From an uncultured Dehalococcoidia bacterium (lineage in GTDB: Bacteria > Chloroflexota > Dehalococcoidia > Lucifugimonadales > UBA1123): 32,000 nucleotides of DNA. The DNA is taken from positions 1-32,000 of the forward strand of contig CAZPQQ010000007.1 of NCBI GenBank assembly GCA_964588665.1, written 5' to 3'. The notes below the pieces were generated by a model that searched no databases, was not told the DNA's origin, and saw only the letters and a list, made by a program, of their open reading frames with translations. The position numbers were made by a program, and so were the translations under genes. Shown here piece after piece: positions 19,446-22,319 of this stretch (its first letter is position 1; each line of letters opens with the position of its first letter).

Positions 19446-22319
19446 CTACCGACTCGATATCGAGATGTGTTGATCCGCCGGCACGTTCGTCAGAATGCCG
19501 GTCTCACCGTCCACCCATTCGACACGAACCTCGTCGACGATCGTCGCCGCGCCTACGCCGAAGTGGGCAATCCTCCCCGGCTCCTGGGTCAAGTAATTCG
19601 TCGAAGCATGCAGTTCGCGCATCTGCGCAACGCCGTCCACGGTGACGTACACTCGCGATCCGATGCCGTCTCGATGGAGCGGCGGTGTGCCCTCCAGCGT
19701 CACTTTGAGCCAGTGGTTTCCGTTCACCGTGTCATTGCGCAGCAACACGGGCGCTCCGGGAGTACGAACCGGCCCCGCGCCGTTGACGACGTACTCGTGG
19801 TTGTTGGTCAGGAATATGTCCAAATCCCCGTCGTTGTCGAAATCGAACAGGATCACTCCTCTGCCCTGGCCCGTGTCGGCGGCCCCTGCCGCCTTTGCAA
19901 CCTCGTCGAACGCCCCGGCGCCCAGGTTTTCGAACAACACGGCGGGTTGGTCGTTGAACTCCTCTGGGTCGCCTTCTCGTTCGTCCTGGACCCAGCCGTT
20001 CACATGGTACAGATCCAGATCGCCGTCGTTGTCCAGGTCGCCGAAGCTAGCGGCCCAGCCCCAGCCGCCTTCTCGAACATTTGCGACTCCGGCGACATCG
20101 GAGAACGCCATGCCGGTGTCGTTGCGATACAGCCGGTTGCCGGTTCCCCCATGGCCCGCCTTCTCGACATCCGTCTGGCCGAAAATGCTCGAGACGAACC
20201 AGTCGAGGTCTCCGTCGTTGTCATAGTCGCCAATTGCCGCCCCCATGCCGTTTTCGTCGGTAAAGACGTCGCCGGCGCCTGGCGCCAGCTCGAACATGCC
20301 ATCGCCAACGTTCCGGTAGACCCTCGACATCCCAAAGTCCGAGACAACCGCCAGATCGGCCAGACCGTCGTCGTTCAGGTCAGCGAACCTCGGAGCGAAC
20401 ACCCACAGGTCTATCGCGCGCACTTTGCGGAATTCGTACAGCTCCAAACTGCCTTGTCCAAGGTTGCGATACATGAACATCGGCGTAAATCCAGTCGACC
20501 CTATAAGCGTTGGCCTCGTTTGCGTCTGATTGGGCCGCCCAGCCGTCCCCGCAAGCGCATCCAGATCCGACGACGGGTTGGAGTCCACGTCGTAAGCGCT
20601 AGCTGTTTCCGAGTTCCACTCGCCCAGAGCCAACTCAAGCATCCCGTCGTTGTCGACGTCGCCCCAGCTCGGGCTCGTTGCCATCGTCTCGGGCTCGGTC
20701 AGCATGGTGGAGTCGACAATAAACTGCCCAGTTCCGTCGTTGATCAAGAGGTGATGGGGCGCCTGTGAACTGACAACTACGATGTCAATGTCCCCGTCGT
20801 TGTCATAATCCGCGGCCGCCGCGGCCGCTCCCACGCCTGGGAGATTGTCAGCTCCTCTTGCCGCCGTCTCTTCAGCGAACGTGCCGTCGCCTTGGTTCAT
20901 GTACAGATGGCTGGGCGCCTCACCTCCCAGGATGAACAGGTCCACCCAGCCGTCGCCATCAAAATCCTCGGCAACGGCCCCGCCCATCATGTCCGCCGGT
21001 TCGGGCATGCCGGTGACTAAGTCCGGAACGACATGTGTGGTCGTTATTCCCGCCTGGCTGGTCACGTCCGTAAACCGCATGTCGGTCGATCCGTCGCCCG
21101 GAGCCAGCAAGGCGTCTGGTGGCGTGGCGCCGGCCGCCGCGTCTTGGTCGTTCGCGGTGGCGTACTCGGCTCGGAGTCCGAAATCGGGGCCGGCGCCGAG
21201 CGACACGAAAGCAAGCACAGCCAGTCCTCCGGCAGCTCCCAGACCCCACGTGCTGGCGCCGAACGCGGCGACAACTTTACCGGGCATCACTTTGGCCAGG
21301 CCCCAGAAAGTGATCGGCCCTCCGGTCGCGGCTGTGAACAGCAATGCGGCCGCCGGCGCCGTTCCCATCCCAGACAGGAGCAACACCGCCACCAGCGGAA
21401 TCTCAAACAGCAGCGGCACGTTGATAGCGATGCCGAGCGTCGCGGCTATGAGTATCCCGAGGACGTCGTCGCCAAGCCAGGCGTTGACGGTCGCCGGACT
21501 GATCCACTGAATGGCAAGACCGCTGGCGAACCCCGCCAGGACCATCACCGGCGCGAGCCGGAGCACGTGACTGGCTGTGATCTTGACCCACTCGCGAAAC
21601 GCCCCGCCCAACGCCTCGCCCCAGCCAACGTTGTCCGGGCCGGGCGCCTTGACATCTAGGGGCAGCATTTCGATGGCGTCGTCATCGCTGCGCGCGATCT
21701 TCGCCACCAACGGGCCGATCAAGATGGCGCCTGCCAGACTCAGTCCGATGCGCGTTCCTCCGATCAACGGTGCAAACACCATGGTCGCCATGATGATGGC
21801 GGGCAGATTCAGCGTCGACGACCCTTGCGTGATGGCCAGGGTGGTCTCCACGCCAGACCCTCGTCTGCGGAACGCCGAGGCCACGGGCACGATGCACGCC
21901 GAGCAGAGGTTCATGGCCGGACCGACGAGCAGTCCCTTCAGCGACCCCTTGACGCCTTTCGCCGACAGACTCCAATCGCCGGACTTTGGGAACAGGAATG
22001 CCTCCGTAATGCCGGCGACCAAAAAGGCGAATGTCATGCCCACGGTCACCAGCCTGAGGTATGTGGCGGAGAAGTCCCACCACCTCGACAGCAACGTCGA
22101 CTCCGGCGCCGCCTCGATGCAGAAACCTTGGAAGCATTCGGCCACCGGCGATGCCGCCACCGCCAGATCGGCTTGGACCGTGTCCAGTTTAGGCACACGG
22201 TTGAACACCAGGAAGAGCGTTAAGAGCACGGCCAGCAGCGCCAAGCCGACCACGCGCCGCTTCTTGGGCTCGGTGTCGTAGATAGAGTGCGGGAAGCCGT
22301 TGATTGTCATTCGCTCCAT
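19446..22319 (-). CDS. Fusion protein: COG0701/ArsP_1-like polytopic permease (aa ~1-375) + FG-GAP/VCBS propeller + ASPIC/UnbV (CRTAC1-like) domain
   Basis: The N-terminal half is multi-pass hydrophobic and carries the permease-family NLCSACIVPVASAFRRRG motif. An Ala/Asp-rich linker follows, then seven DxDxDG-type motifs (AEDFDGDGWVDLFI ... LFDFDNDGDLDIFL). The terminal ASPIC/UnbV signature is NHWLKVTLEG...GIGSRVYV...STNYLTQEPGRIAHFGVG. Confidence 0.85.
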   Translation of the reverse strand: MERMTINGFPHSIYDTEPKKRRVVGLALLAVLLTLFLVFNRVPKLDTVQADLAVAASPVAECFQGFCIEAAPESTLLSRWWDFSATYLRLVTVGMTFAFLVAGITEAFLFPKSGDWSLSAKGVKGSLKGLLVGPAMNLCSACIVPVASAFRRRGSGVETTLAITQGSSTLNLPAIIMATMVFAPLIGGTRIGLSLAGAILIGPLVAKIARSDDDAIEMLPLDVKAPGPDNVGWGEALGGAFREWVKITASHVLRLAPVMVLAGFASGLAIQWISPATVNAWLGDDVLGILIAATLGIAINVPLLFEIPLVAVLLLSGMGTAPAAALLFTAATGGPITFWGLAKVMPGKVVAAFGASTWGLGAAGGLAVLAFVSLGAGPDFGLRAEYATANDQDAAAGATPPDALLAPGDGSTDMRFTDVTSQAGITTTHVVPDLVTGMPEPADMMGGAVAEDFDGDGWVDLFILGGEAPSHLYMNQGDGTFAEETAARGADNLPGVGAAAAAADYDNDGDIDIVVVSSQAPHHLLINDGTGQFIVDSTMLTEPETMATSPSWGDVDNDGMLELALGEWNSETASAYDVDSNPSSDLDALAGTAGRPNQTQTRPTLIGSTGFTPMFMYRNLGQGSLELYEFRKVRAIDLWVFAPRFADLNDDGLADLAVVSDFGMSRVYRNVGDGMFELAPGAGDVFTDENGMGAAIGDYDNDGDLDWFVSSIFGQTDVEKAGHGGTGNRLYRNDTGMAFSDVAGVANVREGGWGWAASFGDLDNDGDLDLYHVNGWVQDEREGDPEEFNDQPAVLFENLGAGAFDEVAKAAGAADTGQGRGVILFDFDNDGDLDIFLTNNHEYVVNGAGPVRTPGAPVLLRNDTVNGNHWLKVTLEGTPPLHRDGIGSRVYVTVDGVAQMRELHASTNYLTQEPGRIAHFGVGAATIVDEVRVEWVDGETGILTNVPADQHISISSR

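Follow-up and report, generated by a model that had tools for sequence, protein, structure and literature searches.

The window analyzed here, a stretch of 32,000 nucleotides from an uncultured Dehalococcoidia bacterium (contig CAZPQQ010000007.1 of assembly GCA_964588665.1, positions 1 to 32,000), carries on its minus strand a gene for a protein in which a polytopic membrane domain of the ArsP_1 permease type is followed, on the same polypeptide, by a beta-propeller of the CRTAC1 type (Table 1). An earlier inspection of the letters and their open reading frames (ORFs), hereafter called the sequence-only reading, had singled out this uninterrupted fusion, and the ORF list together with the translation bears it out. 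Pfam placed ArsP_1 at amino acids (aa) 94-353; the match reached 51.6 bits (cut-off 32.3) and extended over profile positions 19-277 of 294. FG-GAP_3 was found in five stretches with 148 bits and UnbV_ASPIC (PF07593) at aa 885-952 with 54.2 bits. An AlphaFold2 (AF2) model of the fusion protein, calculated from 95 homologues, reached a mean predicted local distance difference test score (pLDDT) of 82.7, with the linker at aa 376-406 being disordered (pLDDT <50). The gene product is a single, genuine membrane protein made of two modules.

A trivial explanation for such an ORF would be an assembly or frameshift artefact uniting two separate genes, with the junction at ~21080-21200 as the region in doubt. 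The same 957-aa protein is called on contigs of three separate assemblies (ENA, NCBI, and Logan). In a 5.8-billion-protein database clustered at 90% identity, the best 120 clusters were scanned, with identities to the query ranging from 38% to 100%; 115 of them are full-length and have all four Pfam domains, and 119 contain ArsP_1 together with FG-GAP. Within the 95 aligned homologues, the linker, here taken as aa 378-416, varies between 16 and 116 aa in length and the reading frame is always kept. A scan of species-representative genomes (one genome per species) confirmed 391 fusion loci, many of them on megabase-scale contigs, and the best 80 of these 391 all belong to Dehalococcoidia, SAR202, or Chloroflexota metagenome-assembled genomes (MAGs). 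No support for an artefact was found. In two loci of one genome (L032 and L033; CBDFIE010000003.1), the fusion ORF looks split into two overlapping pieces, by either a frameshift or a long-read indel error, and the family is thus not free of errors or pseudogenes of this kind. Given the identical ORF in three assemblies, the more than 100 full-length fused clusters, the genome loci, and a linker that changes in length yet remains in frame, an artefact was ruled out, its probability being practically nil.

The fusion is also widespread. When aa 1-400 alone served as the query of a full HMMER search, 1.84 billion representatives yielded 554 matches, 80 of them below 1e-30. ArsP_1, FG-GAP, and UnbV_ASPIC occur together in all 11 long relatives scanned (885-1281 aa), including those that share only 25-32% identity in the permease half. 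One relative (P0126) has PD40 and TIG domains inserted between permease and propeller, and one distant fused relative stems from a Nitrospinaceae MAG. Since the deeper clade consists mainly of stand-alone permeases of ~376 aa from marine Proteobacteria, the fusion is an addition to a type of transporter that existed before. Members of the SAR202-type clade carry it as a rule, and outside this clade it is sporadic. The sequence-only reading had described permeases of this kind as stand-alone proteins, which fails for this subfamily in view of the number of fused loci and of a fusion kept at 25-30% permease-half identity. Up to five paralogues are found per genome, in one case as five copies on a single 2.47-Mb contig. 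At another locus (L008; 1-2343 and 9836-13147), two fusion paralogues lie 8 kb apart, one with an extra TIG domain, and are surrounded by DDE transposase genes. A protein of 581 aa (P0243) shows the reverse arrangement, with N-terminal tetratricopeptide (TPR) repeats followed by the ArsP_1 permease; such permeases thus appear to accept other partner domains too.

The permease half follows a 1+4+4 layout in the AF2 model, in which an N-terminal helix and the CFQGFC hairpin precede two sets of four helices, at aa 76-109, 122-152, 157-181, and 184-210 in the first set and at aa 233-272, 286-315, 320-342, and 347-374 in the second. In both sets, the second helix is interrupted, at CSAC (aa 137-139) and at NVP…E (aa 299-302), respectively. 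The extra N-terminal helix was also found in stand-alone relatives. Both the CFQGFC motif and the segment NLCSACIVPVASAFRRRG (aa 137-154) are present as described, and together with the Pfam score they support the original assignment of this half to the ArsP_1/COG0701-type permeases. A PDB sequence search with the permease half gave no significant match, and Foldseek with the N-domain model (pLDDT 76.5) found no PDB match with E <0.001. SLC13 NaS1, SbtA, and ASBT were considered as structural matches of the N-domain; with best Foldseek E values of 0.4-0.9, they were treated as non-significant. Consequently, the ArsP_1 fold is without a solved representative, by sequence as well as by structure.

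Regarding membrane topology, the N-terminal tail before the first helix carries a mean net charge of +3.7 in the 95 homologues. A net positive charge was also obtained for loops L1, L2 (which contains RRR), and L7, and a net negative charge for L0 (which contains CFQGFC), L5, and the tail that runs into the propeller. Linker and propeller together contain an even number of cysteines (0, 2, 4, or 8) in 94 of the 95 homologues, as expected of disulfide-bonded extracytoplasmic domains, and a paralogous stand-alone propeller of 584 aa encoded in the window begins with a lipoprotein-type signal. Based on charge bias, cysteine parity, and this signal, the protein is predicted to be oriented N-in, C-out with the propeller outside the cell, as the sequence-only reading had proposed. 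The chain would cross the membrane nine times if all helices span it and seven times if the two broken helices are re-entrant. The predicted C-terminus is outside both ways, and the seven-crossing, re-entrant version seems to fit the positive-inside rule better.

The window fusion protein contains exactly four cysteines, arranged in two near-invariant pairs, and its own propeller has none. This cysteine inventory could be taken as the mark of a transmembrane thiol-disulfide relay of the DsbD/CcdA- or VKOR-fusion-like kind, in which the membrane CxxC and the external CFQGFC would pass redox equivalents to extracytoplasmic proteins. A spacing of CxxC instead of CSC, the presence of 2, 4, or 8 cysteines in many homologous ectodomains, and a c-type cytochrome operon downstream in the window would all be in agreement with such a function. 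However, CFQGFC, invariant in the SAR202-type clade, is missing from the deeper fused clade, the query propeller could not take part through cysteines of its own, and the conserved operon holds no thioredoxin-fold partner. In addition, linkage to the cytochrome operon is confined to loci that are 89-100% identical to the window, and sequence homology points to metal/metalloid exporters. We therefore regard a relay as very unlikely.

Conservation within the permease half is informative about function. C62, F63, Q64, F66, and C67 are invariant in the 95 sequences, R190, N300, P302, E306, and P308 are likewise kept in all 95 homologues, and C139 and C142 in 94. The mean column identity over aa 301-340 amounts to 0.92. 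The mean pairwise identity is 0.64 for the permease core versus 0.48 for the propeller, and 0.57 versus 0.37 when distant pairs are considered. All clades compared, the stand-alone ones included, show a cysteine pair in the first repeat (CSAC, CxNC, CSCS, CAAC, or CACC) and an acidic residue (E or D) at the E306 position of the second, and CSAC aligns to the CSC/CxxC motifs of stand-alone ArsP_1 relatives. These data bear on the possibility that transport has been lost, with the polytopic domain serving only to keep an adhesin or receptor propeller attached to the surface of a cell without outer membrane. Such an anchor would be compatible with the external propeller, the flexible linker of variable length, the modest ArsP_1 score of 51.6 bits, and the operon partners described below, which are surface-tethered binding proteins. 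Nevertheless, the permease core is better conserved than the propeller, the residues at both helix breaks are invariant, and the site residues are common to stand-alone homologues. Moreover, the same genome anchors paralogous propellers by a simple lipoprotein signal, making a nine-helix anchor unnecessary. A pure anchoring role is accordingly quite improbable. The pattern is probably that of a functional substrate site and not of a degenerate anchor, and the protein probably is an active transporter, with transport itself being what we infer from these residues.

The C-terminal module carries seven Dx[DN]x[DN]G calcium motifs at aa 452, 504, 554, 647, 698, 761, and 826. The top Foldseek match in the PDB was murine CRTAC1 (9etn_A; E 1.7e-21, target-normalised TM-score 0.72), which substantiates the earlier designation as CRTAC1-like, and 9etn was also matched by phmmer against the PDB (E 2.5e-15). 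The remaining Foldseek matches of the propeller were much weaker and included aldos-2-ulose dehydratase and the rhamnogalacturonan lyase YesW, with TM-scores of 0.30-0.35 for the enzymes. Over its whole length, the propeller half can be aligned with two genes of the neighboring operon, one of 584 aa (12372-14126; 31% identity, E 2e-49) and one of 1178 aa (8804-12340; 29% identity, E 2e-31), so that the paralogy noticed in the sequence-only reading holds. Nothing past UnbV_ASPIC, and no EGF domain, was detected by Pfam on the fusion protein; vertebrate CRTAC1 also has a C-terminal EGF-like domain. On the basis of motifs and model, the module is best described as a CRTAC1-type propeller plus beta-sandwich, for which calcium binding is predicted.

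Table 1. Coordinates of the fusion gene, its parts, and the upstream operon in the 32,000-nucleotide window.
Feature	Position	Strand	Basis
Fusion gene, 957 aa + stop	19446..22319	-	ORF list and translation; ATG start, without internal stop
N-terminal transmembrane helix, aa 17-40, KKRR before helix	22200..22271	-	Hydropathy; AF2 helix aa 17-55
CFQGFC beta-hairpin, aa 62-67, predicted first external loop	22119..22136	-	AF2 strands aa 62-67
ArsP_1-type permease core, aa 76-374	21198..22094	-	Pfam and AF2 helices
CSAC, aa 139-142, break of second core helix	21894..21905	-	Conservation, alignment to ArsP_1 relatives
NVPLLFEIP, aa 300-308, break of sixth core helix	21396..21422	-	Conservation across 95 sequences
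Flexible linker, aa 375-415	21075..21197	-	Low pLDDT, low conservation
FG-GAP beta-propeller, aa 416-884, seven calcium motifs	19668..21074	-	Pfam, motifs, Foldseek
UnbV_ASPIC beta-sandwich, aa 885-957	19449..19667	-	Pfam; AF2 all-beta, pLDDT >90
Strong hairpin (GGGAGGGGGT…ACCCCCTCCC), ~-41 kcal/mol	22640-22715	-	In spacer, just past stop codon of the solute-binding protein gene
Family-5 solute-binding lipoprotein, Pro/Ala-rich tether	22734..24698	-	SBP_bac_5 E 5e-57; lipobox LAAC, then PA-rich tract
Opp/Nik-type ABC permease gene	25126-26064	-	Pfam BPD_transp_1
Opp/Nik-type ABC permease gene	26080-27045	-	Pfam BPD_transp_1
Leucine-rich repeat lipoprotein, first gene of conserved operon	27061..27921	-	Pfam LRR_4; lipobox LFAC

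Directly upstream of the fusion gene and on the same strand lies the gene of a solute-binding protein (SBP), a lipoprotein, which is preceded by two permease genes of an ATP-binding cassette (ABC) importer and by the gene of a leucine-rich repeat (LRR) lipoprotein. The order LRR-OppB-OppC-SBP5-fusion on one strand is strict in ~22 loci that are at least 57% identical to the window protein. In the clade of 46-54% identity, the ABC genes are adjacent but divergent, and altogether an SBP5 or Opp-type permease gene adjoins the fusion in ~44 of 84 loci. A family-5 SBP accompanied by two BPD_transp_1 permeases, the hallmark of an Opp/Dpp/Nik-type importer, was found clade-wide. The best NCBIfam models remain below threshold: the permeases scored 274.5 bits with Opp2B (nickel), 247.7 with Opp4C, and 240.5 with Opp1C (Ni/Co), all below the 350-bit cut-offs, and the SBP scored 76 bits with nickel_nikA against a cut-off of 393. 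Nickel is thus the best sub-threshold model for the SBP and one permease, and oligopeptide, narrowly ahead of nickel/cobalt, for the other permease; with all scores below the cut-offs, neither a nickel nor a peptide equivalog can be named for the ABC genes. Of the two ATP-binding subunits expected of such an importer, sought as ORFs with both Walker A and LSGGQ, none was detected in the window or, for 19 of 21 clade loci, within ±10 kb (clade loci of the ABC operon: L004-L026, L081, and L087). At L019 and L025, a 641-aa ORF with Walker A and LSGGQ lies just upstream of the LRR gene and is possibly a fused double ATPase.

The paralogues of ~40% identity have heterogeneous neighbors, and no universal gene partner for all paralogues was found among the neighborhoods compared. 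Those without ABC genes adjoin catabolic enzymes, namely a short-chain dehydrogenase/reductase, a PhyH dioxygenase, an FAD monooxygenase/halogenase-like protein, an amidohydrolase, a dihydrodipicolinate synthase, and a formamidase. This suggests, as an alternative, a system for organic substrates: the propeller would bind or cleave some constituent of dissolved organic matter, the product would be taken up by the permease or by the ABC importer next to it, and the paralogues would have specialised in different compounds, in the manner of other expanded SAR202 families. Besides these catabolic neighbors, the up to five paralogues per genome, the weaker Foldseek matches to the propeller enzymes aldos-2-ulose dehydratase and YesW, and the presence in the window of other catabolic families counted as SAR202 hallmarks (PMC5395668) would be in line with this idea. 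On the other hand, diversification of substrates would be expected to alter the transport site, the residues of which are invariant across the ~40%-identity paralogues. In addition, the enzyme matches are weak compared with the TM-score of 0.72 for CRTAC1, and no catalytic residues were identified in the protein. Overall, we consider an organic-substrate system unlikely.

We favor an explanation in which an active ArsP-type transporter bears its own surface propeller and, in the window clade, has the Opp/Nik-type importer and the LRR lipoprotein as working partners, and we see about an even chance that this explanation is correct. Module 1 (aa 1-375) would be a secondary transporter of the ArsP/UPF0718 family with 1+4+4 helices, whose likely substrate site comprises the membrane-embedded CSAC pair and the invariant E306, each at a helix break. 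Module 2 (aa 416-957), propeller plus beta-sandwich, would be displayed outside the cytoplasmic membrane on the flexible linker and serve as a surface head that binds a ligand or partner, held right above the permease. The permease may move a small thiophilic species, with a soft metal or a metal/metalloid-organic complex as the likeliest candidates, as suggested by weak matches to the metal exporters SaoE and SO_0444 and by the cysteine motif in common. In the window clade, the fusion protein would act together with the co-oriented LRR lipoprotein and ABC importer.

Several observations weigh against this explanation. The substrate class, the direction of transport, and any contact or coupling between propeller and permease, including the capture and import, or export and delivery, of a propeller-bound ligand suggested in the sequence-only reading, are what we infer, the substrate class from sequence relationships. 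The best NCBIfam matches are far below their cut-offs (SaoE, NF040736, 28 bits versus 325; SO_0444, NF033936, 25.1 versus 300), and the cysteine spacing is CxxC instead of the family-typical CSC. Up to five paralogues, many of them beside catabolic enzymes and not metal genes, would be unusual for a metal transporter. The ABC neighbor is missing at about half of the loci. Furthermore, a 414-bp spacer (22320-22733) parts the SBP gene from the fusion gene and contains the strong hairpin, with TTGTCGTT coming next; this hairpin may be a terminator or an mRNA stabiliser. Co-transcription of the SBP and fusion genes is therefore not assured, and the fusion gene may have its own promoter. According to the ORF coordinates, the spacer is much shorter in many orthologous loci.

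Comparison with known systems helps to position the protein. It passes the Pfam gathering score of the ArsP family (TC 2.A.119; PF03773; UPF0718/YraQ; COG0701) and shares with it the 4+4 helix repeat, the cysteine pair of the first half, and the acidic residue of the second; a 1+4+4 variant with the extra N-terminal helix is on record for this family (PMC7176098). In contrast to the family, it has CSAC instead of CSC, a clade-specific and putatively external CFQGFC loop, and a ~540-aa module predicted to be external, and there are no arsenic genes near the fusion gene. A Cys-Ser-Cys motif is the common signature of the SaoE and SO_0444 families, and SaoE always sits with an ABC importer (10.1101/2022.07.06.499078). 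With SO_0444, a Cu/Zn efflux protein, and SaoE, the fusion protein thus has the cysteine motif region in common, and with SaoE also the position beside an ABC importer, whereas both families are stand-alone without ectodomain and, judged by the scores, it is a member of neither. The stand-alone 1+4+4 ArsP_1 permeases (~376 aa; P0291 of Rhodobacterales and P0265) have the same helix layout; their CxNC/‘FD’ site is that of the deeper fused clade, and they are without propeller. As the C-terminus of the stand-alone permease is predicted to be outside, it would be ready to accept a fused ectodomain. On the other side, CRTAC1/ASPIC proteins (PDB 9etn; bacterial CRTAC1 family) resemble module 2 in the propeller with C-terminal beta-sandwich, the seven calcium motifs, and the extracellular place, which for module 2 is a prediction. 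Unlike the known forms, which are soluble and either secreted or lipid-anchored, the fusion form is covalently joined to a nine-helix membrane domain.

Both domain families are known; what is new is the covalent attachment of a CRTAC1-type ectodomain to a permease of the ArsP family. The sequence-only reading did not recognise the architecture as described, and indeed full-text literature searches (SAR202, ArsP/UPF0718, and ASPIC/FG-GAP/CRTAC1) retrieved no paper on the ArsP_1-propeller architecture, nor does the SAR202 cultivation paper mention it. At the same time, the architecture turned out to be common and automatically annotated as ‘FG-GAP-like repeat-containing protein’ or ‘YraQ/UPF0718’, the former label concealing a transporter. 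An anammox paper reports a CRTAC1-family gene within hydrazine-synthase-like clusters; it concerns other taxa.

The fusion offers a concrete entry point to the UPF0718/ArsP permeases and to the bacterial CRTAC1-like proteins, both of which are poorly understood, and places the action of the two families at the same cell-surface site. In the dark ocean, SAR202 bacteria rank among the most abundant cells, and the processing of recalcitrant dissolved organic matter is ascribed to them. A protein that is conserved in SAR202, occurs in up to five copies per genome, combines a transporter with a large receptor-like surface domain, and sits in an ABC operon in one clade is likely involved in how these cells acquire or handle something from sea water. 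Going further, the tethered propeller might capture a ligand or extracytoplasmic metal and hand it to, or receive it from, the ArsP-type permease, which would define a previously unrecognised class of receptor-coupled secondary transporters. We put this forward as a doubtful proposal; if true, the class would be the secondary-transport counterpart of binding-protein-dependent uptake, expanded in an abundant deep-water ocean clade.

Downstream of the fusion gene, a four-gene run on the minus strand (8804-17625) encodes a c-type cytochrome of 721 aa with five CxxCH motifs and weak MtrC/MtrF-like matches, a pyrroloquinoline quinone (PQQ)-like beta-propeller lipoprotein of 446 aa, and the two CRTAC1-like paralogues, one a lipoprotein (584 aa) and the other a TPR plus CRTAC1-like protein (1178 aa). 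A general functional link of the fusion to this multihaem cytochrome/PQQ-propeller/ASPIC operon was rejected, as the association is restricted to the window, L001, and L018. Separate study of the multihaem cytochrome and its accompanying surface propellers in SAR202 may nonetheless be worthwhile. Divergent from the cytochrome operon, the gene at 17935-19332 (+) encodes a PQQ-like propeller protein with an N-terminal zinc-ribbon (CRICGQ…CSNCRS; weak DUF7577 match) followed by a membrane helix, which suggests a cytoplasmic zinc-ribbon tied through the membrane to an external propeller. No Pfam match was obtained for the ORFs 1828-2976 (+) (382 aa) and 30161-31957 (-) (598 aa), the latter of which overlaps CoA-transferase genes of the opposite strand and probably is not a gene. 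Further parts of the window (3113-7039, 7354-8697, and 28836-30640) encode two luciferase-like monooxygenases, a mandelate racemase/enolase-superfamily protein, a major facilitator superfamily transporter, and two CoA transferases. These families, reported as expanded in SAR202, agree with the SAR202/Dehalococcoidia names of the closest homologues.

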